A stretch of DNA of 64,000 nt from a virus (IMGVR_UViG_3300044724_008054:1129-65128), one strand, 5' to 3'; shown: positions 2,897 through 64,000, counted from the first letter of the stretch. The notes: generated by a model from the sequence alone, not told the origin. Translations and numbers: made by a program.

Positions 2897-5560
2897 TTAG
2901 AATTCAAACAGTTTGTTGAATGTATTACTGGTTTCTGTTGATTGGACGTCCCACCCCAGAACCCCTATAAGATTGTCTATCTTTTGATCCAATATAGTTG
3001 ACTCCATTGCATCACCATCAAAAGGCAAGTCCTTGAACCATTCCGGAATACGCATCTCATCTACTGGATACGCGATGCTTGTATAACCCATTGGGTTATT
3101 CTTGAGTTTGCACACAATCACTTTTGCACCATCCGTTATTGGCATACTGTACTTGTCACCATACATCTCCCTGCATCTGTTCCAGTTTATACTTGCCCTC
3201 ACGTGTCCCGGCATGTTTGCTCTACCCTTGGCTTCTTCAGCCGCTGTGTACTTGGTCATGTTGTTTGCCCTCTTGGGTGATCCTTTCTCCCAACCTGGTC
3301 TCGATTTGAACTCCGCTCTAAATTCACTTATTCTATCCAGTACATTCTTCTCTTCTTTTCCTGTGAGCACCATGTACAGAAGATCACTCAAGAAGTCTTG
3401 TACGAACACAGGAGTGTCAGATCTTTTCAGATCCAATCCCATTGCCTTCATTTTTCCTTCTTTGCCTTCCACGTCTGTGCGTTTGCCTTCCTTGTCGTAG
3501 TACAGCACTGCATATCTTTTCTTTGTGATGAACAGTCCTTTTGATGCAACAAGTTCCCTACCTGCTTTGATTACTTCTCCCCTTGTGCTTGGAGTGTGGA
3601 ATGCTTTTGTCATGAATGCCTTGAACGAGATATTCACTTCTTCTGCAATTTTATCATACAACGCAATCACAGATTCTTTGGTCCATGGAATAGTGCCTTC
3701 GTTTATTTCTTTCTTTAAAGTTTTGTGTGCTGAAAAATACACAGAGTCTGTGTCACCATACACAACACTCTCACCTTTGTGGTCATACTTGCCTGCGACT
3801 ATCTCGTTCACTTTGGCTCCCATGTGTTTTGTTATACATCTACCTGTCAATGTCACACTTTGTCCTATACGTATGTCAAAGAATCTACATCCTGGATTTA
3901 GGATTGCACCATACAGACTGTTCAGGTTAATCTTTTTAACAAGTTGCCTCTTGTCCCAATACTCTCGCTCAATCTCGTTGTCTCCGCAGTCACGCATCTT
4001 TTGTTGCATCTCCTGTCTCTCTGCATACCAACGTTTCAATAATCCTGGAATGATCGCTTCATACTCGTATGTGAATATTGTACCATTGGCACTCAACATC
4101 CATTTGTTGTTGCCGTCGAATATTATCTCATACATCTGTGCCGCACTCATACGCACACTGGTTTTGTCTTCCCAGTCTACAATTATTTCCGTACCTTTCT
4201 CCTTGTTCATCACCGCAACATACTCCCAACTACCGAACTGGCTATCCCAAGCCGCCGCAAATGATTTCTTGGCGTGTTTGGCCCTGTTGATCTCTGCTGA
4301 AGTTATCACAGGCCTTATCTGTCCTATAATGGTCTCCGGTCCCATGTTCAGTGCCCTAATCACACTTGGGTACAGTGAGTTGATGTCAATGGATCCTATC
4401 CAGTCGTGTATTCCTTTTTGCGGAGTGGCCACGTATGCACCCGCCGCCGGTTGGTTCTCTTCGCCATCCTTCTTGTACTTCCTGCCAGGCACAATCATAC
4501 CACGCCTGTGTGTTTCGTTTACGATTGCTTGTTCTGTAACTGCAACTGCACCCATCGTTGTTTGTAGCAACACAGTGTTTTGGTGTGCAATCTCATTGGC
4601 CAGTTCTATGAATTTTAGTTTCTTTTCGAGTTTGGCCAACAGTGCAGTATCTTGCCTGTTGTATTCTATGAACAATCCAAAATCGTTTTTGTACAGGTTG
4701 TCTAAGGAACCCTCGTATACAGTTTTCTTTTCACCCAGCTCATGCTCTCCTATCGCATCAAGTCTGAAACTGTGCCTCTCCTCGTATGTGTATTTCCTAT
4801 AAAGTTCTAGCAAGTCCAAGTGTACCCGACCGATCAGATCAAAACTCAACTGTTCCCTGCCGTATTTTTCAAACACTCTCTTCTTGGGTTTTTGACCCCA
4901 GAAGCACAATCTCCTTGTGTCATCACCACTCAGCACTTTCTGTATCCTACCAACTGTGTATGGAATATCATATCCCTCACTGTTCCAACCTGACAGTATG
5001 TCTGCGTCTTCCACTAGTTGTAAGAATGCGTCCAGCATGTCTTTCTCTTTCTCGAACAACATCGTATTTGAAAATCTCTCTGTCAATACTTTTGCATCTT
5101 GCATACTGATTGTCTTTGGAGGTACTGCAAGTGTGACCAGTTGATCCGTCCAGCTCATATAACAACTTATGGCAGTTATGGGCATGAACGGATCATCTGT
5201 AGTTGAGTAACCCCTCTCAGGGTCAAAGTCAACTTCAATATCAAAGAACATGGTGTTCAACTTGGGAGTCTCCTTGCCTAGGTAGTTCTCCTCAAGGCAT
5301 CTGAACACTGGATTGATATCTTGTTCATAAAGTTGCTTGTTGGACCTAATCCTCTGCTCCTTAATGAATTCCTTGTTTGTCTGACACACCACTCTCTGCA
5401 ATGGTTCTCCAGTCATGCTTCTGTGTTTGCCCCTCGCATCTGGATAGTAGAAAACGTAACGTGCATCGTATTCTACGAACACACGACCCTTCTTGGGATC
5501 ACGTTCTACAACGTATATCCTGTCTTCGTCTTTTTTGTATAGTGCGTCTATGTAACTCAT
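2897..5560 (-). CDS. family B DNA polymerase with 3'-5' exonuclease (T4 gp43-like)
   Basis: Exo motifs FFDIEV, GWNSEGYD; polymerase motifs DINSLYPS, KINLNSLYG, YGDTDS, KKRY. Start moved to MSYID (5560), directly after the upstream stop. Confidence 0.97.
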   Translation of the reverse strand: MSYIDALYKKDEDRIYVVERDPKKGRVFVEYDARYVFYYPDARGKHRSMTGEPLQRVVCQTNKEFIKEQRIRSNKQLYEQDINPVFRCLEENYLGKETPKLNTMFFDIEVDFDPERGYSTTDDPFMPITAISCYMSWTDQLVTLAVPPKTISMQDAKVLTERFSNTMLFEKEKDMLDAFLQLVEDADILSGWNSEGYDIPYTVGRIQKVLSGDDTRRLCFWGQKPKKRVFEKYGREQLSFDLIGRVHLDLLELYRKYTYEERHSFRLDAIGEHELGEKKTVYEGSLDNLYKNDFGLFIEYNRQDTALLAKLEKKLKFIELANEIAHQNTVLLQTTMGAVAVTEQAIVNETHRRGMIVPGRKYKKDGEENQPAAGAYVATPQKGIHDWIGSIDINSLYPSVIRALNMGPETIIGQIRPVITSAEINRAKHAKKSFAAAWDSQFGSWEYVAVMNKEKGTEIIVDWEDKTSVRMSAAQMYEIIFDGNNKWMLSANGTIFTYEYEAIIPGLLKRWYAERQEMQQKMRDCGDNEIEREYWDKRQLVKKINLNSLYGAILNPGCRFFDIRIGQSVTLTGRCITKHMGAKVNEIVAGKYDHKGESVVYGDTDSVYFSAHKTLKKEINEGTIPWTKESVIALYDKIAEEVNISFKAFMTKAFHTPSTRGEVIKAGRELVASKGLFITKKRYAVLYYDKEGKRTDVEGKEGKMKAMGLDLKRSDTPVFVQDFLSDLLYMVLTGKEEKNVLDRISEFRAEFKSRPGWEKGSPKRANNMTKYTAAEEAKGRANMPGHVRASINWNRCREMYGDKYSMPITDGAKVIVCKLKNNPMGYTSIAYPVDEMRIPEWFKDLPFDGDAMESTILDQKIDNLIGVLGWDVQSTETSNTFNKLFEF

Positions 5561-5561
5561 C

Positions 5562-5846
5562 TTACCACCAATAACTTGCCACGCCGTAGCCGTAGACATT
5601 TATGATTGCGAAGTAGCCAGTGATCATCATCACGAACGCCGCTTCTCTCCTGTATGAAGCATAACATTGTGTGAGTGCTCCTACTAGGAATCCCGGATAC
5701 ACTATAGTCATGTCCGGATCCGAGGCTGTGATCGCAAGTGTTAGGCTGGCTCCAACTGTGAAAATGAAACTGACGAGTTCGAAGTAGAACGCCGTCCTGT
5801 CACTCTCAAAACTACGAAGCCAGAATGATCTGACTTTCGCCAACAT
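5562..5846 (-). CDS. small membrane protein (about 3 TM helices)
   Basis: Hydrophobic 94 aa ORF coupled by overlap to its neighbours. Confidence 0.6.
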   Translation of the reverse strand: MLAKVRSFWLRSFESDRTAFYFELVSFIFTVGASLTLAITASDPDMTIVYPGFLVGALTQCYASYRREAAFVMMITGYFAIINVYGYGVASYWW

Positions 5847-7185: not shown

Positions 7186-7364
7186 TTGCTCTTGTTACCC
7201 CAGTTGGCCGCACCCTTCTTGCGACACTGGACCAGAGCACCACTGGCATAGGCCGATGGCCAAACTTTGTATCTTGATTTAACCTTGTGGTAGCAGGCGT
7301 CCTTCTTCTCTGCCAATTTCTCAAATTCGGCTTCGGATATCCCAACTACTTCCGTGATCTTCAT
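7182..7364 (-). CDS. small basic protein, putative internal head protein
   Basis: MKITEVV leader plus KKDACYHKVKSRYKVWPSAYASGALVQCRKKG module. Confidence 0.6.
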   Translation of the reverse strand: MKITEVVGISEAEFEKLAEKKDACYHKVKSRYKVWPSAYASGALVQCRKKGAANWGNKSK

Positions 7365-9317
7365 TTACCATTTCCTGCATGACCAATATCTGGCCTTGGT
7401 CTTTGGTCCTGGGTTGGCACAGTTGTGACGTGCCCTGAAACTTTTCCTCGCCTTTGGATTTGACTTCCTGATCTTCATCGTCTTCTGTCCCGCCTTCCTG
7501 GCTGAACTTCCACCGTGTCCGAAGTTGACCTTCTTGACGTTGCCAGATTTTGGATCTTTGACATACACTTTGAATTTCTTCACATCACCACGCATTGGTT
7601 TATTAAGCGGAACTTTACGTCCTCTGTACTCCGCGTCAAACAATTCGTTCTCGTCTTCTGGGAAACCCAGTTCACCAAACGCTTCGTAGAACGCATCATC
7701 GTCCTCGAAAGTCATCTCGTCTTCTTCTGGGAACGGTTTGAATGATTCTTCTGCTTGGACTTGTTTGAACATTGAAGAACCCGCCACTTTACCTATGGCT
7801 GTGCTGGCCACGTCGAAGTGTGCCCTGCCCTTCTCCTGTTGTCCCTGTTCTGACCATTTGATGGATCCTGACGGCATGCCCAGTGTCTTCTCCAGTGCGG
7901 CTTCCACCGCCTTGTCCGTGTAGATCTCCCATGGTCCGTCGTGTTCCATTGTGAGTTCCACGTAGTCATCCATGTCAGGATAGTGTGATATCATGATGGA
8001 CTCCACGTTGATCACGCCTGGGATATCGGCCTTGTTGGCCCAGACTGATTCTCCGCTGGGTCTGATCGCGAATGCCTTGCCCGTGTATTCGTAGTATTTT
8101 GTTTCGTTGTCGTCTTCCTGGATGCCTGACAGTTCCTTGAGCCTGCTGAGTTCGTCCTCGTGTTCTGAAACTGATTCGGACGCCTGTACTCTTGAAACTT
8201 TTCTCTGCAATGGCGTGCCTTCGAAATCCTGTTGGAAAACCAACATGGCCGACGATATGTGTGGATCGTCGTCGATGTAATCCAGCACTCCTCTGATCGT
8301 CTTGACCGTGTAATCTTGACCTTTGCTCTTTAACTTTTCTAGGCCAGCCGTATAGTTCGTGGCGTGTTGTGAAAAATCCTTGGCTTGGTAGTAACCATCA
8401 TCATTCGTTAACAGATCTTCATCACCGAATTTTTCCTCCACATCCAATACATCGTCTGCGAATTGATCTAGGTTGCCTTTGGCATGTGATTGTTGTAAAA
8501 ATTCCTTTACTTTTGGAAGAAGTTTTATCTGTTCGTCATCGAGGTCATATGGATCATCGCCAATTTCATTCACTCCTTCGAGAGCCCTTTCAAAATATTC
8601 GTTTGCGGTGGCAGTCAACCACTTCGCGAACTGCTGTCTCTCCTGTGGCGTTAACGGAGTCTTGTCCACGTCACCGTATTTCTCCATGTTGTCCGCATAT
8701 TCATCACGATTTTCATAATCAAAGTAATTGTCGCCTGCGTCTTCTGAAACTGATTCATCTAGTGCCACCAGGGCCTCTTCCGCGTTTGTCAGTGACTGCA
8801 ACGCTGACCTCTTGGCATCCTCGTCCACAGACAGTGCTTCCACCCTGTCCTTGATCTGCGATATGTCCAGCATCACCTTCGTGAATTCAATCTTGTCGTC
8901 GTCCGCCAGTTCGTTGATCTCGTTTGTTGGCACGTGTGCACCGCCCTGCATCTTTTCGTAGTGTTCCGCGGCCTCTTCTGGAGTTAGACCTAACTCATCA
9001 GCATGACCCATGAACTGGTCCTTGGTCATGTTCTGTGCCATATTGGCGATCTTCTCGCCTGCGTCTTCCTGCACCGGTACGTTCACACCGTCGATCCTGT
9101 TTAGTATGTTTCTTATTTCTACCATTGATTCTGCTATCGGTGAGTTGCCCATCTGCATCTGTGTCCTGTCGTTTGTGAATTGTGTTGTTTTTGCCAAACC
9201 CCTGCTACCTGCACTTGCTGGAGACTGGATCTGTTTGCCTGCGTCTACTGTACCCTGATCACGCAGTCTAACTGTGTCATCAACGTATTTGCCATAGTTA
9301 TAGGGTATTGAGCTCAT
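7365..9317 (-). CDS. acidic modular polyprotein with basic C-terminal module
   Basis: 650 aa; repeated QEDAG/ESVSEDAG/ESVSE/QEDD boundaries; ATAAATA late promoter 6 nt upstream. Confidence 0.7.
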   Translation of the reverse strand: MSSIPYNYGKYVDDTVRLRDQGTVDAGKQIQSPASAGSRGLAKTTQFTNDRTQMQMGNSPIAESMVEIRNILNRIDGVNVPVQEDAGEKIANMAQNMTKDQFMGHADELGLTPEEAAEHYEKMQGGAHVPTNEINELADDDKIEFTKVMLDISQIKDRVEALSVDEDAKRSALQSLTNAEEALVALDESVSEDAGDNYFDYENRDEYADNMEKYGDVDKTPLTPQERQQFAKWLTATANEYFERALEGVNEIGDDPYDLDDEQIKLLPKVKEFLQQSHAKGNLDQFADDVLDVEEKFGDEDLLTNDDGYYQAKDFSQHATNYTAGLEKLKSKGQDYTVKTIRGVLDYIDDDPHISSAMLVFQQDFEGTPLQRKVSRVQASESVSEHEDELSRLKELSGIQEDDNETKYYEYTGKAFAIRPSGESVWANKADIPGVINVESIMISHYPDMDDYVELTMEHDGPWEIYTDKAVEAALEKTLGMPSGSIKWSEQGQQEKGRAHFDVASTAIGKVAGSSMFKQVQAEESFKPFPEEDEMTFEDDDAFYEAFGELGFPEDENELFDAEYRGRKVPLNKPMRGDVKKFKVYVKDPKSGNVKKVNFGHGGSSARKAGQKTMKIRKSNPKARKSFRARHNCANPGPKTKARYWSCRKW

Positions 9318-58197: not shown

Positions 58198-58258
58198 GTA
58201 AAGTATTTAAGATCGGTGTTTTACCATAATACTAGCGGTTCATAAATACCAGTATATT

Positions 58259-58537
58259 ATGGATTTCGTGACATTCATCGCAGAAGTGGGTTTCCCAATC
58301 GCGGGTGCCATAGCCGCGGGTGCTTTCGTGTTCATCACGCTCAAGTTCATCCTGGCCTCAGTGACCGGATCAGTGAACAGTTTGAAGGCCATCATCGGAG
58401 CCCTGGACAACAGGGTGCAAACCATGAACAATGACCTGGTCAAGATAGACGCATTATTGAGTTATGTTTTGAAGATCAGACCAAACGCGGACAGGTTGGC
58501 CGCAAACGAGGGCAAGAACGATGCTAGACGCGACTAA
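58259..58537 (+). CDS. YvrJ-like single-TM coiled-coil protein
   Basis: FIAEVGFPI; ATAAATA 10 nt upstream. Confidence 0.6.
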   Translation: MDFVTFIAEVGFPIAGAIAAGAFVFITLKFILASVTGSVNSLKAIIGALDNRVQTMNNDLVKIDALLSYVLKIRPNADRLAANEGKNDARRD

Positions 58538-58862
58538 CGATATAGTGACAATGATCAAGGATTTTGGCTTCCCTATCGTGGCCGCGATGGGTCTAGGTTA
58601 CTTCGTGTACTACATTTGGAAATGGGTGACAGAAGAGATCAAACCCGTTCTTGGTGATGCCTCAAGCACACTGATAAAACTGGTTGATCGTATCCGCATG
58701 CTGGACAATGACATGATCAGGCTCAACACCAAACTCAGCATGGTGCTGGAGTACAAGGAAGAGATAGTCAAAGCCGGACGTTCGGACGAGCTGGACGAGA
58801 TATTGGCAAAATACAAGAGCAAGTCGGAATCGTTTGATTCCACGGGCGATACCAAGAAATAA
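58521..58862 (+). CDS. YvrJ-like single-TM coiled-coil protein, paralog of the previous gene
   Basis: IKDFGFPI...LVDRIRMLDNDMIRL vs LDNRVQTMNNDLVKI. Confidence 0.65.
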   Translation: MLDATNDIVTMIKDFGFPIVAAMGLGYFVYYIWKWVTEEIKPVLGDASSTLIKLVDRIRMLDNDMIRLNTKLSMVLEYKEEIVKAGRSDELDEILAKYKSKSESFDSTGDTKK

Positions 58863-58869
58863 TCAATTC

Positions 58870-58996
58870 AATTTTGTAAATTTTGTAAATTTAAATTTAC
58901 AAAACATTTACTCCGTTTACACCTTACGGCTAGGATTTCGTGGATTTTCCATATAAGTTTACTATAAGTAAATTTACAAGCAATAATTTACAAAAA
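58870..58996. repeat. AT-rich array of GTAAA/TTTAC motifs with a 24-bp perfect palindrome
   Basis: TTTTGTAAATTTAAATTTACAAAA at 58881-58904; nine exact pentamer copies between 58876 and 58991. Confidence 0.85.
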
Positions 58997-59008
58997 GGAA
59001 ACAATACA

Positions 59009-59158
59009 ATGTACGAAGACAAGAAAAAGACCAAGAAGATTTATGTAGAAAGCAAATGTGTTTCTCGTGACGACTGCTGTTGGGATGAAACACCGGACAC
59101 ATCAGAAGTCGTTGCTGTAAATGATAAACACCTCGAGAATGAGCATGTGGCCGTATAA
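59009..59158 (+). CDS. small hypothetical protein (49 aa)
   Basis: SD AAGGA then ATG 59009; MYEDKKKTKKIYVESKCVSRDDCCW. Confidence 0.45.
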   Translation: MYEDKKKTKKIYVESKCVSRDDCCWDETPDTSEVVAVNDKHLENEHVAV

Positions 59159-59191
59159 CGAAGACGAGTTAGATTGGTTATCTGGTAAAAA

Positions 59192-61018
59192 TTAATTTTT
59201 AATAGTATAAACTTTAACAGCCTCGGTCTTGCCCTTTACCGTGATGCTGTCGATGTATTCGAATGGATAGACAGTCTCTATCGTGTGTCTAGTGTCCTCA
59301 CCTATCACCAATGTCTTTTCTAGCGTTTTGCTTGAACTCTCCAACCTGGATGCTAAATTGACTGGGTCACCTATAACAGAATAATCAAATCTCTGTTCAG
59401 ATCCCATGTTACCAACCAGTGCGTCACCTGTGTTTATTCCAATACCTATTTTTATCTCATCTGTGAACCCTTCAGCGACTAGTTGCATGTTCAGATGTTG
59501 CAGTGCTTCTATCATGTCCATGGCCGCGGCCACAGCCGCCTCTCTGTGTTTCTTGTTTTCAATAGGTGCGTTCCAGAATGCCATGATGCAGTCGCCCATG
59601 AACTTGTCTATGGTTCCGCCGTTTGCTATTATCACATCTGTCATGCGTGTCAGGAACCTGTTGATCAGTCTTGTGAGTCCTGCAGGATCTCCCTTGTACT
59701 TCTCACTGAGGGGTGTGAATCCTCGGATGTCACAGAACAGGAATGTCATGTTCCTCGTCTCGCCACCCAGTTTCAACAGTGAAGGATCCTTCTGTAATTT
59801 CTTGACCATGCCAGGATCCAGGTAGTGTTCGAACTGTTTCTTTATCTGTAGTTTGAGGCTGAACTCTTTGACGAACCTGTTGAACACTGCATGGAATCCT
59901 GTCACCGTGGTCACTAGTATTATCCAACTGGCGTCCCAGAGTTGTAGATGTTTTACGAAGTAGAAATACGCACCATAGGCCGTTCCTGACCACACAGTCA
60001 ACAACACAGCACCGACCAACCAGTAGGGTGCGAAAGCCGCCAATACGATTATCATGATTGCTAATATGCCAGCCGCGACATATTCCAGGAATGTGGCCGT
60101 GTCCAACCTCACTAGGTTCTCACCGTTCAACACGGTCTGTAGGCTGACCGCCATGGCCGTGTGGCTGTACTGCTCACCGTTGGGTGTTGCTATTATGGTG
60201 CTTATGCCCTGTGCGGTGTTTCCTATTATGACGGTCTTGCCCGCCACTGACGTAAAGTCATCTGTGATGCTGATCGTTTGGAACTGCTTGTTCCATCGCA
60301 ACCATATCCTTGCGTACTGGTCTGTCTTGACGGTTTTGAATTTTGGTACCCTTAATGCTATCACGCCACCTTCGCTGGCTTTGACTTGGTAACTGGGATC
60401 TCCAACAGCGACCCTTATAACTTCCAGTGCAACGCTTGGATACACTTCATCTCCAACCCTCATCAGCAACGGCAATCTCCTGACCACACCGTCTATCTCG
60501 GGCGTGGTGTTCGCAACTCCAACTCCGTCCACGTTGTCTCCCAGCAGGGGTATCGGTCCCAGCATTCCTGGCCATTCGAACAGCCAGGGCAAGGGATCTC
60601 CTATCTTGGCCACACCTCGTGGCACCGCGTTCTTGTTCGTCTGTGTGGTGCCCGACTGTGCTATCACAATTCCATTCTGTACCAATGCCTGTGCCAGGTC
60701 CATGTCTCCTCCCAACCTGTCCTCTTCTGAGAACAATATCGGTAGTACTATTATGCCGGCACCTGCTTCTCTCAATCTCCATATCACGTCAGCCAACACT
60801 GTACGCTTCCATGGCCACTGTCCGTTCTGTTCTATGCTCTTCTCGTCTATCTCCACAATGACCACATCCTCACTCATAGTGGGAGTATCGTATTTCTGTA
60901 TTAGGTCAAAACTTTTTAATCTTGCTGTCTCTTTCACGAAAGGATCCTTGAGTCCCCAGGCCATGAGCACAGCCAGGGTTATAAATGCCAGTGTCCAGTG
61001 TGTCAGTATCCGTTTCAT
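59192..61018 (-). CDS. CHASE2-domain class III adenylate cyclase
   Basis: N-terminal TM, CHASE2 (VVIVEIDEKS, WPWKR, DGVVRR), 3 TM, FCDIRGFT, IDKFMGD, YSVIGDPVNLASRLE. Confidence 0.92.
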   Translation of the reverse strand: MKRILTHWTLAFITLAVLMAWGLKDPFVKETARLKSFDLIQKYDTPTMSEDVVIVEIDEKSIEQNGQWPWKRTVLADVIWRLREAGAGIIVLPILFSEEDRLGGDMDLAQALVQNGIVIAQSGTTQTNKNAVPRGVAKIGDPLPWLFEWPGMLGPIPLLGDNVDGVGVANTTPEIDGVVRRLPLLMRVGDEVYPSVALEVIRVAVGDPSYQVKASEGGVIALRVPKFKTVKTDQYARIWLRWNKQFQTISITDDFTSVAGKTVIIGNTAQGISTIIATPNGEQYSHTAMAVSLQTVLNGENLVRLDTATFLEYVAAGILAIMIIVLAAFAPYWLVGAVLLTVWSGTAYGAYFYFVKHLQLWDASWIILVTTVTGFHAVFNRFVKEFSLKLQIKKQFEHYLDPGMVKKLQKDPSLLKLGGETRNMTFLFCDIRGFTPLSEKYKGDPAGLTRLINRFLTRMTDVIIANGGTIDKFMGDCIMAFWNAPIENKKHREAAVAAAMDMIEALQHLNMQLVAEGFTDEIKIGIGINTGDALVGNMGSEQRFDYSVIGDPVNLASRLESSSKTLEKTLVIGEDTRHTIETVYPFEYIDSITVKGKTEAVKVYTIKN

Positions 61019-61446
61019 CCTCTTATGTCCTCTAACATTTTTTGTCTAAACTTAATTTCCCACCAAGCACTGAATCTGTCTTTGTGATTTTTGTATGTGT
61101 AAAACACTTTGCCCAACCATCTGTCCATTGTTCTTTGTGTGGTGAACTGTTCACTGATCTGGTAACCAAGAGCAAACTGACGGCACCCAATTTCTGCGAG
61201 ATGTTCTTGGTCCACTGTGCCGTCAAATTCTGTTTCGTCAAAAATTATCTTGTTGCCATCATTATCTATCAATTCGTGTACCTCACCAACGATATGCACG
61301 TGGGAAACGATACAGTCTATCAACTGTTGTCTATCCGACCTTTCGTTCACACGTGACTCCCAACCATCGTACAGCGTGATCACCTGTGTCACAATTAATA
61401 CGGGCACGGCGAATCTCGTGGTGAACTTGTTCCAGAAGTCTTTCAT
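61015..61446 (-). CDS. hypothetical protein
   Basis: 143 aa; ATGA-coupled to the cyclase; TTAAATA upstream. Confidence 0.6.
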   Translation of the reverse strand: MKDFWNKFTTRFAVPVLIVTQVITLYDGWESRVNERSDRQQLIDCIVSHVHIVGEVHELIDNDGNKIIFDETEFDGTVDQEHLAEIGCRQFALGYQISEQFTTQRTMDRWLGKVFYTYKNHKDRFSAWWEIKFRQKMLEDIRG

Positions 61447-61493
61447 TATGTGTGTATTTAATGAGATCTAGTTCTGTGTTAAAATCTTTTTAA

Positions 61494-61634
61494 TCATATG
61501 GGTTTGCTACCGTCCAGCATCAGGTGTAGGTTGAACTGGTACCACATCTGCTGTCGGTCCTTCCACAGGTAGATGTTGGACACACTCAGCACCACGATGC
61601 CGAGTAGGATCAATATCAGGTATGTGCGTCTCAT
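61494..61634 (-). CDS. small membrane protein (46 aa)
   Basis: Not in track; MRRTYLILILLGIVVLSVSNIYLW...; starts directly after the upstream stop. Confidence 0.5.
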   Translation of the reverse strand: MRRTYLILILLGIVVLSVSNIYLWKDRQQMWYQFNLHLMLDGSKPI

Positions 61635-61877
61635 CTATTCCTTGACGTAGCAACCGGCCACCACCGAACAGTACTGCGTGGTAGTAGGCACTATCAGTGA
61701 TTTCTCGAATGAGGTTCCGCTATTGGGTTGTTGGAATGTTGATCCGGTCTGGGTCTTGGTCTTGGTCTCCAGGGCCACCTTGTCACTCTCGGTGTTCACC
61801 TCCGCCTGCTCCACGTAGATGTCGTTGGCGTGTACCGACACGCAGAACAACAACGATATCAATAACGCTCTGACCAT
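61635..61877 (-). CDS. small secreted protein
   Basis: Signal peptide ...VSVHA-NDIYVEQ; C-terminal CSVVAGC. Confidence 0.6.
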   Translation of the reverse strand: MVRALLISLLFCVSVHANDIYVEQAEVNTESDKVALETKTKTQTGSTFQQPNSGTSFEKSLIVPTTTQYCSVVAGCYVKE

Positions 61878-61925
61878 AATAGCAGTATTTAAATTATGTG
61901 CGTAGTTTTATTATGTGCGTATATA

Positions 61926-63410
61926 TTAGTTCTGGTTGACGGTGGTGGTGCCGCAACCGTTGGCATTGGTGCAGATCTGCGTCAGCGAGTAGGTCTGGTC
62001 CGTTGATCCGGATTGGTCCAGGTCCAGCGTTGAGCTGTAGCCGGTCATGTCTATGGTTGCCGCGTGTGATCCCGATCCGTCCTGTAGTACGTCTATGGTC
62101 TGGTTACTGCCCGCCGTGACGTCCAGGAAGTGCTCGCCGGTGCCCTGCTGTATGATGTCCACGTCGTTACTTGACCCGTTCACGTCCAGGAACAGCATCT
62201 TGTCACCGTCGTCCTTCTGGTCCATGTACATGATGTTGCTGTTGCCCGCGACGTCGATCTCCATGTAGTGTCCGTTGCTACCGACCCCACCGTCGTTCTC
62301 CTGTAGGATGCCCAGCGTGTTGTAGTTGCCCACCACGTTGGTGCTACTGCGATGTCCCCCCGCGTCATCCATGTTGTCACCCTGCCTCACCGTGATCGAG
62401 TTGTTGGTGCCGTTGACGTCCAACAGCGTGACGTTGTCGTCACTGAACGAGCCCGCGTTGTTGCCCTGTGTGATGTTGACCGTGTTGTCGTCACCGGTTA
62501 TGGTGGCGTTGGCCATGGTGCTGGATGTGGTGCTGGTGCCCGCCACCAGGTTGTCGTTGTCGTACTGTGTGATGTCCAAGTCGATGTTGTCACCGCTCTG
62601 CTGTACGTATATGGCGTTGCCGTTCGACGTTATGCCCCTTGCGTCAGTCCTGGACTGTAGTTGTGCTGATGTGGGTGCTGAACTGTACGTGGGTGTAGAA
62701 CTTGCCATTGTGCCATTCTCACCGTAATACATCACATCATCAACATATTCAAATGTAGCATCAGAATCATAATTTGATTGGAACTGATTGATGTCAAATG
62801 TCACTGTCACAGATCCCGTGTAGCCTGACGGTAAATCATCACCACGCCACATCATCCAAATGATTGCTCCACCGGAAGTCTTTGCCAACCATAAACCATC
62901 TGATGTTGTGGCAATACTTGATCCATAGATGTATTGTCCGCCATCGTCGGCATCACTGACTGATGTGTTGACCGTGTTGTTTGAGGTATTGTATTGTGTT
63001 CCACCATACACATCCGAACTTAGATCCAATGTGCCACCAAACTTGTTTTCAATGAGGCTTTCAATGTTTGAGTTTCTGGTAGGAAAGGATGAGTTCTCAC
63101 CCACAATTATCAGATGCCCACCGTCCTTGACATAGGTGTCATAGTTGGCACGACAGGTTGATCCGCAGTTGTTGTTGTAGAGTTGGTCTATCACCACGTC
63201 ATAGTTTGCCAGGGTTGATGCTGAAGCAACCGTGGTTGATGTTGAGCCTGTCACTGTGTGGCCTTGTGCTTCAAGTCCAGCCTTGGTGTCAGTGTATGCA
63301 TAGTTGTTATGATAGATTAGGATATCCAAGGCCTTGGCCGGCGTGGCCGCCATCCACACCATGATGGCAAACAGCCAGTATGTTATGATGTATAGGATTC
63401 GTTCAAACAT
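61926..63410 (-). CDS. secreted protein with C-terminal curlin-like beta-solenoid repeats
   Basis: Start at TAATG 63410 (MFERILY...PAKA-LDI signal peptide); repeats G-x-x-N-x-h-x-h-x-Q. Confidence 0.75.
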   Translation of the reverse strand: MFERILYIITYWLFAIMVWMAATPAKALDILIYHNNYAYTDTKAGLEAQGHTVTGSTSTTVASASTLANYDVVIDQLYNNNCGSTCRANYDTYVKDGGHLIIVGENSSFPTRNSNIESLIENKFGGTLDLSSDVYGGTQYNTSNNTVNTSVSDADDGGQYIYGSSIATTSDGLWLAKTSGGAIIWMMWRGDDLPSGYTGSVTVTFDINQFQSNYDSDATFEYVDDVMYYGENGTMASSTPTYSSAPTSAQLQSRTDARGITSNGNAIYVQQSGDNIDLDITQYDNDNLVAGTSTTSSTMANATITGDDNTVNITQGNNAGSFSDDNVTLLDVNGTNNSITVRQGDNMDDAGGHRSSTNVVGNYNTLGILQENDGGVGSNGHYMEIDVAGNSNIMYMDQKDDGDKMLFLDVNGSSNDVDIIQQGTGEHFLDVTAGSNQTIDVLQDGSGSHAATIDMTGYSSTLDLDQSGSTDQTYSLTQICTNANGCGTTTVNQN

Positions 63411-64000
63411 TAGTTCTGTTGGTTTATGGTTATGCGGTTGTTGATACTGCCACCGTCGGGGTTGATCTCGAAGCCGATTATCTCGTTGCCATTCTGGTTG
63501 TGATCTATGGAATAGTTGTAGCCCTGTTGCAGTTCCATCCTCACGTAGTTGCCTGACGCACCCTCCCTGATGTAGATCCAACGGGGATCCTGGTTCAGTA
63601 TGGTCACTCCTGTGTCAGCGTCGAAGCCCAGTTTGGGATTAGTCTCCTTACGATCAAGGTCAGTCCTGGCCTGACGTATCAAGTTGTCCATTGATTGGTC
63701 CAGTGCGTCGAACAGGAAGTCTCCAGCCAAGGGATCGAAGTCTAAATCTGTCTGCCAACGATCCGCTTCACCCTCTGCCAGGTAGTCCCGGTTCAGTTCC
63801 TCGAACACGAGCAGATCAAGGTCCAGTATGTTGGCCACGGCCTTGATCGCGTCTCGGTTTTTCTCGTCATCTATCTGCTTTGGAGGGGTGATGATGAGGA
63901 GGTTGTTTATGAAGCTCTCGTCCAGTTTGAGCAGGAGAGGCTTCAAGGGCGTCGACTTGGCGGTGTCCACCACCGTTGCCTGGAACGCCTGATTCATTAT
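63410..64000 (-). CDS. FecR-domain protein, C-terminal part (runs off the right edge)
   Basis: Frame open at the window edge (I-M-N-Q-A-F-Q-A-T...); NQAFQAT and INNLLIITPP recalled from the tail of FecR-domain proteins. Confidence 0.55.
   Translation of the reverse strand: MMNQAFQATVVDTAKSTPLKPLLLKLDESFINNLLIITPPKQIDDEKNRDAIKAVANILDLDLLVFEELNRDYLAEGEADRWQTDLDFDPLAGDFLFDALDQSMDNLIRQARTDLDRKETNPKLGFDADTGVTILNQDPRWIYIREGASGNYVRMELQQGYNYSIDHNQNGNEIIGFEINPDGGSINNRITINQQN

Follow-up and report, generated by a model that had tools for sequence, protein, structure and literature searches.

Viral curli-like regions raise the question of whether a gene run that ends in a receptor adenylate cyclase serves to sense across the host envelope or to make a fibre. 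Here, we analyze the far end of a 64,000-nucleotide stretch of the IMG/VR virus IMGVR_UViG_3300044724_008054 (the whole stretch, hereafter the window), which an earlier note, made from the sequence, had read as a possible phage-encoded trans-envelope signalling system. Very probably, what lies here is the promoter-distal half of a viral block already in print, in which curli (type VIII secretion) genes run together with FecR and an adenylate cyclase. The system is not new, FecR and adenylate cyclase being already part of the viral curli region CsgF-CsgG-curlin-FecR-curlin-adenylate cyclase (Wittmers et al. 2022, PMC9599517).

Carrier phage and gene content

The source virus is an estuarine giant phage, represented by a 65-kb contig (18% complete, CheckV). 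DNA polymerase and baseplate genes lie inside the window. The polymerase is nearest to those of Sinorhizobium phage Phosso and Agrobacterium phage Atu_ph07. This giant carrier belongs with Atu_ph07 and Phosso, and not with the pelagimyophages. Six co-oriented ORFs were confirmed on the minus strand where the earlier note had placed them, and both of its translational couplings were read in the sequence, as a TAATG overlap between the FecR gene and CurB (63412-63408) and an ATGA junction between o143 and the cyclase (61018-61015). The genes are intact, with the contig end (window position 64000) inside the FecR gene, and their functional role is predicted. The features are as follows.

63410..64000, minus strand: FecR-fold protein, exported, C-terminal 196 codons (phrog_37870, Melnitz gp102 orthology)
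61926..63410, minus strand: CurB, secreted, 494 aa (homology to HTVC008M gp018 and Melnitz gp103)
61635..61877, minus strand: o80, small exported protein (sequence; hydrophobic N-terminus 4-22)
61494..61634, minus strand: o46, 46-aa single-pass membrane peptide (hydrophobic segment 3-25)
61445..61919, minus strand: CRCACATAAT, three copies, in the gaps before o80 (two) and o143 (one)
61015..61446, minus strand: o143, 143 aa, one N-terminal hydrophobic segment (ATGA overlap with cyclase start)
59192..61018, minus strand: receptor adenylate cyclase, 608 aa (Pfam CHASE2 and Guanylate_cyc; phrog_35576)
58259..58862, plus strand: pair of overlapping paralogs, small membrane/coiled-coil proteins of 92 and 113 aa (phrog_18771)

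The block in related viruses

CsgG had no match on the contig, which stops within the FecR gene. Between 50.7 and 59 kb, the window is syntenic with three viral loci (L033, L003, and L004) where CsgF, CsgG, and the first curlin (CurA) occur upstream. In the close, syntenic relatives L033 and L022, CsgF-CsgG and CurA lie directly upstream, and the window accordingly contains just the final part of the block. Orthologues of the window genes occur in the HTVC008M and Melnitz cassettes, in the order CsgF-CsgG-curlin-FecR-curlin-cyclase. The cyclase is encoded on >599 IMG/VR contigs. Where ≥6 kb of sequence precedes the cyclase (25 viral loci), a FecR-domain gene was present in 24 and the full CsgF-CsgG-curlin-FecR set in 21, bearing out the co-occurrence across genomes on which the earlier note had made its reading depend.

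This co-occurrence bears on a proposal from Melnitz, suggested by structure modelling and gene neighbourhood, that CsgG/CsgF form a gated channel or pinholin-like device for lysis timing (Buchholz 2022), the downstream genes being unrelated passengers. The lysis proposal is based on synteny alone and leaves unexplained the curlin genes, FecR, and cyclase, conserved companions of the pore genes in 21/25 loci; moreover, no recognised lysis gene adjoins the block in the window. We give it a very small chance of being right.

The paralog pair lies downstream of the cyclase, convergent with it and outside the coordinates covered by the earlier note. Its members matched phrog_18771 (1.6e-31 and 4e-33), and a Pfam search found no domain in them. 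The tandem pair was present in 39/82 loci, either directly after the cyclase or directly before CsgF (as in Melnitz gp97/98 and HTVC008M gp011/012), and is a constant companion of the block.

FecR-fold protein

The FecR-like gene of the earlier note stands by its orthologous C-terminal half; the FecR domain proper is missing because the contig end cuts the gene. The partial ORF matched phrog_37870 positions 190-382 (E 1.5e-39) and Melnitz gp102 residues 178-369 (37% identity), alignable from a conserved LNQAFQAT motif to the common C-terminal I-x-I-x-Q end. The Pfam FecR domain of its orthologues, at residues about 54-151, would here fall past the contig end. By this orthology, a FecR-domain protein lies between the curlin genes.

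The fold was modelled on the close relative L033 (mean pLDDT 76; >90 in the beta domain). This model resembled the PupR signalling domain 6OVK (Z 15.3), 4M0N (Z 14.0), and the “cell surface anchoring domain” of MpIBP, 5IX9 (Z 11.2; 74/76 residues aligned; 24% identity), on which residues 18-113 superposed with an rmsd of 2.1. In full-length viral orthologues, a signal peptide comes first and the beta domain follows from about residue 22. A FecR-type anti-sigma regulator was considered and rejected: the cytoplasmic anti-sigma domain and preceding transmembrane (TM) segment are absent in these full-length orthologues, and the phage protein, lacking that domain, therefore cannot act as a FecR-type anti-sigma factor. 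The C-terminus showed weak similarity to curlins (hhalign probability, 17%).

Curlin-type proteins and small ORFs

CurB, whose true start is the ATG at 63410, comprises a signal/anchor sequence, an N-terminal domain of ~240 aa, a Ser/Thr linker, and C-terminal curlin-type repeats that terminate in C-x5-C...TVNQN. It is 41% identical to HTVC008M gp018 and 36% to Melnitz gp103. The earlier call of a curlin-repeat protein did not pass Pfam, where Curlin_rpt scored 14.6 bits on the window protein (cut-off, 20.7), and was upheld by the family profile, which matched solved curlins (8C50, E 2.2e-13; E. coli CsgA 8ENQ, E 4.3e-4). Curlin_rpt passes in the orthologues of HTVC008M (33.1 bits) and Melnitz (21.8 bits), and the CurB family matched the first curlin family with an hhalign probability of 99.9. 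An AF2 model of CurB had regular strands over residues 265-494 (pLDDT 80-94); a Foldseek search did not retrieve curlins. Judged by sequence, CurB is a curlin-family member.

Between CurB and the cyclase lie three small ORFs. o80 has a signal peptide, then the curlin-family N-terminal motif ANDIYVEQ, with which CurA and short CurB proteins also open, and a C-x5-C loop at its end; o80 resembles a pared-down member of the curlin family. A homologue (40% identical) occupies the same place in L009/L010. The start of o46 abuts the o80 stop (TAGATG), and its homologue in L005 (62% identical) lies directly before the cyclase, as do the o143 homologues in L003 and L164 (76-78% identical). o143 matched no family in a Pfam search, and its clusters in the ESM Atlas are virus-only. 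Homologues of o80, o46, and o143 were found only in a few related viral contigs, and the three are a lineage-specific insertion into the block. The CRCACATAAT copies, the only three in the 64-kb window (0.59 expected; 3/100 shuffles reached three), are possibly a local promoter-like or insertion-borne sequence.

CHASE2 adenylate cyclase

The cyclase (phrog_35576, E 3e-216; 57% identical to Melnitz gp104 and 52% to HTVC008M gp019) is laid out as TM1, a periplasmic CHASE2, three TM segments, and a class IIIb cyclase domain. CHASE2 (PF05226) covers residues 16-324 (144.8 bits against a gathering cut-off of 26.3; E 4.6e-42), and Guanylate_cyc (PF00211) scored 78.6 bits (cut-off, 21.9; E 5.8e-22). 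In the hydropathy profile, residues 4-22 form one hydrophobic stretch and residues 305-344 a block; reading by eye, the region after CHASE2 appears to hold three TM segments at about 311-379. CHASE2 thus sits between TM1 and a three-TM block followed by a cytoplasmic output domain, the CHASE2 receptor architecture.

The best solved match of the catalytic domain was Pseudomonas aeruginosa CyaB (3R5G; E 3.9e-36, 128 bits). Alignment to it placed the metal Asp residues at D430 and D476, the adenine-selecting residues at K472 and S547 (Thr in CyaB), and the transition-state residues at N554 and R558, which agrees with the complete cyclase described in the earlier note. All 78 viral homologues keep the catalytic D, K, D, and R unchanged. 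Two catalytic-site positions are changed in the Melnitz clade (DKDDSR), and some lineages may therefore do without cAMP synthesis. The protein is a class III (IIIb) adenylate cyclase, predicted to make cAMP.

A product other than cAMP (e.g., a pyrimidine cyclic nucleotide, Pycsar-like), or a role in defence or counter-defence in place of sensing, has only the faintest chance. The cyclase domain does match PADLOC PycC models (best E 5e-28, 96 bits), but such cross-hits are expected within the class III superfamily, of which PycC is also a member. The validated adenylate cyclase CyaB scores higher, the adenine-selecting Lys and Ser/Thr are present, and signalling cyclases typically have this CHASE2 receptor architecture. 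A Pycsar system was rejected on the further ground that a search of the contig and of five related, block-bearing phage genomes found no cNMP-binding protein that could serve as effector. The same search gave no support to the earlier note's suggestions of CRP-type reprogramming, sensing of secondary infection, and control of lysis timing.

Fibre or sensor

Zaragoza-Solas 2020 (PMC7029224) and Wittmers 2022 (PMC9599517) read the block as fibre-making only, with curli-like fibres for aggregation (“sibling capture”) or as a superinfection barrier; FecR and cyclase would then be regulators with a loose association to the block, or would influence host physiology apart from the fibre. The curlin families are genuine, the CsgF/CsgG pore genes share the block in relatives, and CurB bears adhesin-like head domains (e.g., PA14 in HTVC008M), all of which agree with that proposal, but FecR and cyclase are not confined to curli. 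In three viral loci (L026, L029, and L052), the curli set is swapped for a giant FecR-cadherin-RTX protein with TolC-like and HlyD-like genes, a type I secretion-like adhesin set, and FecR, cyclase, and paralog pair are retained.

The pairing recurs in bacteria, as the earlier note had stated: an FecR-domain ORF lay within 7 kb of 31 of the 80 closest bacterial CHASE2 cyclases (39%, against ~0.01 expected per locus; FecR background, 1-11 genes per 4-8 Mb bacterial genome). Many of these neighbours encode giant FecR-cadherin-RTX adhesins and sit immediately upstream of the cyclase in the same orientation. A search around the 80 loci found neither CsgG nor CsgF nor a curlin gene. Published cases agree. 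In Sinorhizobium meliloti, cyaD1 adjoins the FecR-domain gene smc02177, which is dispensable for signal perception; in Burkholderia, a LysM/FecR protein adjoins a CHASE2 kinase; and in magnetotactic bacteria, the MtxA gene is followed by a CHASE2 cyclase. The persistence of FecR and cyclase without curli argues for a unit tied to a surface structure and not for incidental neighbours. Melnitz-infected cells also showed no clumping (Buchholz et al.), and overall we regard the fibre-only proposal as rather unlikely.

We lean slightly towards the curli-FecR-cyclase block being a trans-envelope sensor, taking identity and mechanism together, and this reading is plausible. Its mechanism, from pore or fibre through FecR and CHASE2 to cAMP, is more tentative, and we hold it to be a little more doubtful than credible. 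Counting against the sensor reading are the dispensability of smc02177 in S. meliloti, the lack of clumping in Melnitz infections, the weak curlin similarity of the FecR C-terminus, the Melnitz catalytic-site changes, and the failure to find a cNMP-binding protein on this contig and in the five phage genomes; nor does this contig carry the FecR domain, CsgF, or CsgG. The infecting phage would equip the host outer membrane with a CsgG/CsgF pore, encoded by genes probably just beyond the contig end, as in L033 and L022. Substrates of this pore would be curlin-type subunits: CurA, CurB (which bears an additional head domain), and perhaps o80. The exported FecR-fold protein would keep its N-terminal beta domain in the periplasm, a step suggested by the resemblance of this domain to the FecR/PupR signalling domain and to the N-terminal anchoring plug of MpIBP. 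From there, it could report the state of pore or fibre to the periplasmic CHASE2, and the cyclase would then set cytoplasmic cAMP synthesis. o46, o143, and the paralog pair would be accessory envelope parts, and the cAMP receiver would have to be a host protein. The physical or genetic FecR-CHASE2 link is putative in all systems, and the surface-to-cAMP circuit of the earlier note can reasonably be inferred and is not a finding.

Comparison with known systems

The pelagiphage type VIII secretion region (PMC9599517; PMC7029224; HTVC008M gp011-019; Melnitz gp97-104) has the same families in the same order for the part present here, and the marine or estuarine phage setting and the small membrane pair are common to both. 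The window differs in its giant phage carrier, in three extra small genes between curlin and cyclase, and in having the membrane pair after the cyclase, on the other strand. The N-terminal domain of CurB also differs, being PA14 in HTVC008M and none in Melnitz. The pelagiphage curli papers do not mention CHASE2 and take FecR as an iron regulator (PMC9599517; PMC7029224).

Alphaproteobacterial FecR/CHASE2 cyclase pairs include the nearest cellular relatives of the window cyclase (30-39% identical over full length). As in the phage, the FecR domain lies near the N-terminus of an exported protein; unlike in the phage, the bacterial partner is either a cadherin/RTX adhesin or a small FecR protein. 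The FecR/PupR anti-sigma regulators have a similar periplasmic fold, but in the phage protein the signal peptide leads directly into the beta domain, and a cytoplasmic anti-sigma domain is lacking. The retention module of RTX adhesins such as MpIBP and LapA resembles the FecR beta domain (in the superposition on 5IX9), and among the homologues, the bacterial ones and part of the viral ones are genuine FecR-cadherin-RTX adhesins; in contrast, the FecR protein of the curli version is short (~370 aa), has no RTX repeats, and lies beside a CsgG-type and not a TolC-type pore, at which it would be retained. All catalytic residues of P. aeruginosa CyaB align with those of the window cyclase, whose sensor part is CHASE2, whereas the solved CyaB chain is the catalytic domain only. 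Full-length CyaB has a membrane sensor other than CHASE2.

Gene layout and catalytic assignment

The window carries the downstream part of a phage block that comprises CsgF, CsgG, a first curlin (CurA), a FecR-family protein, a second curlin (CurB) and a CHASE2 adenylate cyclase. The window forms the final 64 kb of a 65,128-base IMG/VR virus record, whose contig ends at position 64000. The gene calls of the earlier note were right, and six minus-strand open reading frames (ORFs) were confirmed between 64000 and 59192. Together with a pair of neighboring genes, they are as follows.

Genes of the block in the window (coordinates, strand, description)
63410-64000, minus: FecR-family ORF, open at its 5' end, C-terminal half
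61926-63410, minus: CurB, curlin-repeat ORF of 494 aa, start ATG at 63410
61635-61877, minus: o80, ORF of 80 aa with a signal peptide and curlin-like motifs
61494-61634, minus: o46, ORF of 46 aa
61015-61446, minus: o143, ORF of 143 aa directly before the cyclase
59192-61018, minus: cyclase ORF of 608 aa, CHASE2 plus class III cyclase
58259-58862, plus: two overlapping paralogous small membrane/coiled-coil genes (phrog_18771), convergent with the cyclase

The FecR-family ORF overlaps CurB at TAATG, o80 and o46 meet at TAGATG, and o143 overlaps the cyclase by ATGA (all read from the sequence).

The cyclase matched Pfam CHASE2 (E 4.6e-42) and the Pfam class III cyclase domain (E 5.8e-22), each far over its curated cut-off, as well as phage family phrog_35576 (E 3e-216); among solved structures, CyaB, an adenylate cyclase of P. 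aeruginosa, came closest with its catalytic domain (3R5G, E 3.9e-36). Residue alignment to 3R5G placed the metal-binding aspartates at D430 and D476, the adenine-selecting residues at K472 and S547 (a Thr in CyaB), and those of the transition state at Asn554 and Arg558; the enzyme was correctly described beforehand as a CHASE2 receptor cyclase with a full catalytic set. Hydropathy gave a hydrophobic stretch at residues 4-22 and a block at 305-344, and three membrane segments were read after CHASE2 at about 311-379, which would put CHASE2 on the periplasmic side and the cyclase domain on the cytoplasmic side. PADLOC models of the Pycsar cyclase (PycC) also matched the catalytic domain; a Pycsar reading was set aside as a superfamily cross-hit because CyaB scored better, the adenine-selecting residues are kept and the effector is absent.

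Among 78 full-length viral homologues, the catalytic D, K, D and R were invariant, with Ser or Thr plus Asn at the remaining two positions in 73. The Melnitz clade (5/78; loci L001, which is the cultured phage Melnitz, L009, L010, L012, and L013) has the pattern DKDDSR, with Asp for the adenine-selecting Ser/Thr and Ser for the transition-state Asn, and a C-terminal extension of ~70 aa; these changes may mean an altered product or lower activity. Two viral loci held cyclase-family genes in pairs, convergent in L044 (1277-4381) and on either side of a reversed FecR-CsgG-CsgF set in L062 (1-6925).

Curlin and FecR-family proteins

CurB scored below the Pfam Curlin_rpt threshold (14.6 versus 20.7 bits), and its assignment as a curlin rests on three other results: 41% identity of the C-terminal 250 residues to gp018 of the cultured phage HTVC008M, matches of a profile of 18 viral CurB homologues to solved curlin 8C50 (E 2e-13) and E. 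coli CsgA 8ENQ (E 4e-4), and clear homology between the CurB and CurA families (hhalign probability, 99.9). An AlphaFold model had regular short strands at residues 265-494 (pLDDT 80-94), preceded by a separate, poorly modelled alpha/beta domain of ~240 residues (AF2 pLDDT ~55-65). Foldseek with the CurB model returned no significant match, and no assignment was found for the N-terminal domain with Foldseek, an ESM Atlas look-up and the AF2 model. Homologues begin in one of three forms, namely, the window-type domain, PA14 (HTVC008M), or none (Melnitz).

The ORF at 63410-64000 matched positions 190-382 of phrog_37870 (E 1.5e-39) and shared 37% identity with Melnitz gp102 (residues 178-369), annotated "FecR domain protein." In the Melnitz and HTVC008M orthologues, residues ~54-151 form the Pfam FecR domain; the corresponding region of the window protein falls past the contig end, and no Pfam FecR domain appears in the record. 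The earlier label "FecR-like" thus holds by orthology, for a C-terminal half from which the FecR domain itself is missing.

For the fold, the full-length protein of relative L033 was modelled (mean pLDDT 76, with the beta domain >90). The model could be superposed on PupR, an anti-sigma regulator, at its periplasmic signalling domain (6OVK, Z 15.3), and residues 18-113 superpose on 5IX9 of MpIBP (Z 11.2, 74/76 residues, 24% identity). Beyond the beta domain lie ~100 acidic residues, modelled with low confidence, and then six short strands. A C-terminal motif, h-x-h-x-Q-x-(N/D/Q/E), is common to all FecR, CurA and CurB proteins, and hhalign aligned the last 70 FecR residues to the curlin families end to end; at probabilities of 17% versus CurB and 2% versus CurA, these matches were too weak to accept that segment as a curlin rung.

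A further copy of a published module

The order CsgF-CsgG-curlin-FecR-curlin-cyclase is present in both HTVC008M and Melnitz. Zaragoza-Solas et al. 2020 (PMC7029224) described a "curli operon" of pelagimyophages, Buchholz et al. 2022 discussed the block for Melnitz, and Wittmers et al. 2022 (PMC9599517) extended the viral T8SS region by FecR, adenylate cyclase and a "histidine kinase," detected parts of it at each of the 65 GOV2 stations and reported its expression in metatranscriptomes. CHASE2 goes unmentioned in these three papers, and FecR was taken as an iron regulator. The window block is a further, partly visible copy of this very common phage module.

Relatives of the cyclase are encoded by >599 IMG/VR contigs. 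Co-occurrence was examined in the best 80 of these plus two isolates (82 loci), and gene order was counted in the 25 with at least 6 kb upstream of the cyclase. The genes had been expected to co-occur across genomes, and they do: 21 of the 25 well-flanked loci keep the full CsgF-CsgG-curlin-FecR(-curlin)-cyclase set. Three others (L026, L029, and L052) encode a giant FecR-cadherin-RTX protein instead, and one has neither.

As proposed in the earlier note, csgG and csgF were looked for next to the window genes. The contig ends in the FecR gene, and the entire 65-kb record has neither a CsgG nor a FecR Pfam domain, which the contig end explains and which is not evidence of absence. The stretch from 50.7 to 59 kb is syntenic with L003, L004, L005, L006, L031, and L033, and L033, whose cyclase is 84% identical to that of the window, carries genes for CsgF, CsgG and CurA upstream. 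Very probably, therefore, the absent front half of the window block (CsgF, CsgG, first curlin) sits just off the contig.

The phrog_18771 pair was found in tandem in 39/82 loci, either immediately before CsgF (Melnitz, HTVC008M) or immediately after the cyclase, a recurrent position that marks it as part of the block. Wittmers et al. 2022 (PMC9599517) probably meant this pair by their "histidine kinase"; Pfam gave no kinase domain for it.

Small genes before the cyclase

Insertion of three small genes between CurB and the cyclase is particular to the window copy. In o80, the signal peptide is followed by ANDIYVEQ, a motif shared with the start of mature CurA and of short CurB proteins, and the C terminus has a C-x5-C loop as in CurB; from these motifs, we read o80 as a putative stripped-down member of the curlin family. 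Homologues of o143 were found only in the closest relatives, L003 and L164 (76-78% identity), always immediately upstream of the cyclase. Other viral loci (L033 [7232-7633], L012, L029, L048, L060, and L063) have a small polytopic membrane protein of ~130 aa at that place, conserved in curli-type and type I secretion-type loci with cross-type identity of up to 63%. In the window, o143 occupies its position, and the two proteins are unrelated: a divergent copy was rejected, given no BLAST similarity and an unlike topology.

The decamer CRCACATAAT has three copies in the 64-kb window (61445-61919, minus strand), all in short gaps, two before o80 and one before o143; three matches were reached in 3/100 shuffles. 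It may be a local promoter-like element brought in with the inserted small genes. Scanning 58200-64000 for promoters and terminators yielded nothing decisive.

Carrier phage and samples

The DNA polymerase at 2897-5599 (minus strand) was nearest to those of Sinorhizobium phage Phosso (50%) and Agrobacterium phage Atu_ph07 (45%), giant phages of 470-490 kb, followed by those of Rak2-like phages. Given this kinship and a CheckV completeness of 18%, the 65-kb record is taken to be one piece of a giant-phage genome of roughly 350 kb, not of a pelagimyophage. A Megablast search of GenBank phages with the stretch gave no match, relatives being visible at the protein level only. The best DNA holders were estuary metagenomes, where sampling mainly lies. 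Salt-marsh metatranscriptome contigs from Logan (90-99% alike) gave partial coverage of the small ORFs, the cyclase, CurB and the C-terminal half of FecR; they come from RNA libraries, which is not proof of transcription, and gaps in coverage are uninformative.

Proposed working and comparison with known systems

In our preferred reading, the FecR-fold protein would be located in the periplasm, at the export pore or inside it, and would report the state of the fibre to CHASE2 of the cyclase, as suggested by the conserved gene pairing and the modelled fold. Neither the contig nor five phage genomes that carry the block, both isolates among them, yielded a cyclic-nucleotide-binding protein; the receiver of cAMP would have to be a host protein. 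The outputs suggested in the earlier note, namely, CRP-type control, sensing of secondary infection and lysis timing, are speculative. A more elaborate tether, which we consider unlikely, would have an N-terminal plug held in the periplasm at CHASE2, with the acidic linker and a curlin-ending beta unit crossing the CsgG pore to join the fibre, so that pull, growth or loss of the fibre at the cell surface would be translated into cAMP. The core of a portable surface-contact sensor would then consist of the FecR plug, the CHASE2 cyclase and the pair of small membrane paralogs, and phages and Alphaproteobacteria would attach it to curli-type or type I secretion-type adhesins.

The block is abundant in ocean phages and is predicted to give infected cells envelope structures, which the hosts of its cultured carriers (SAR11, OM43) are without. 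The window alone adds little: it extends the block to a lineage of estuarine giant phages, with small additions specific to that lineage.

Bacterial loci bear on the preferred reading, in which FecR reports to CHASE2. The closest cellular relatives of the cyclase were alphaproteobacterial CHASE2 cyclases (30-39% identity, full length). A FecR-domain ORF lay within 7 kb in 31/80 of the closest bacterial loci, against ~0.01 FecR neighbors per locus expected by chance from 1-11 FecR-domain genes per 4-8 Mb genome (five of the bacterial genomes counted), which upholds the statement that bacterial CHASE2 cyclases often neighbor FecR genes. A CsgG, CsgF or curlin gene was near none of the 80. Against the preferred reading, the adjacent FecR-domain gene of S. 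meliloti was dispensable for signal perception. The sensor interpretation is reasonable, though unproven, and the comparisons with bacterial and type I secretion loci strengthen it somewhat.

Many of the bacterial FecR neighbors are giant proteins directly upstream of the cyclase and co-directional with it, with a FecR domain near the N terminus followed by cadherin, Ig-like and RTX repeats; the giant protein of viral loci L026, L029, and L052 is of the same kind. These three loci (2519-11932 in L029) lack curli genes. After the giant-protein gene come genes for a TolC-like protein of 578 aa, a protein of 250 aa with no assigned function, a short HlyD-like protein of 241 aa, a small polytopic membrane protein and the cyclase, in that order; no ABC ATPase gene was seen within ~10 kb in L029. 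From the type I-like and curli loci together, it follows that FecR, the cyclase and the paralog pair stay joined while the secretion system and fibre vary. MpIBP is itself an RTX adhesin, and 5IX9 is its N-terminal "cell surface anchoring domain," like the beta domain of L033 FecR. This wider comparison favors FecR and the CHASE2 cyclase as one predicted sensor unit, tied to whichever fibre is exported.
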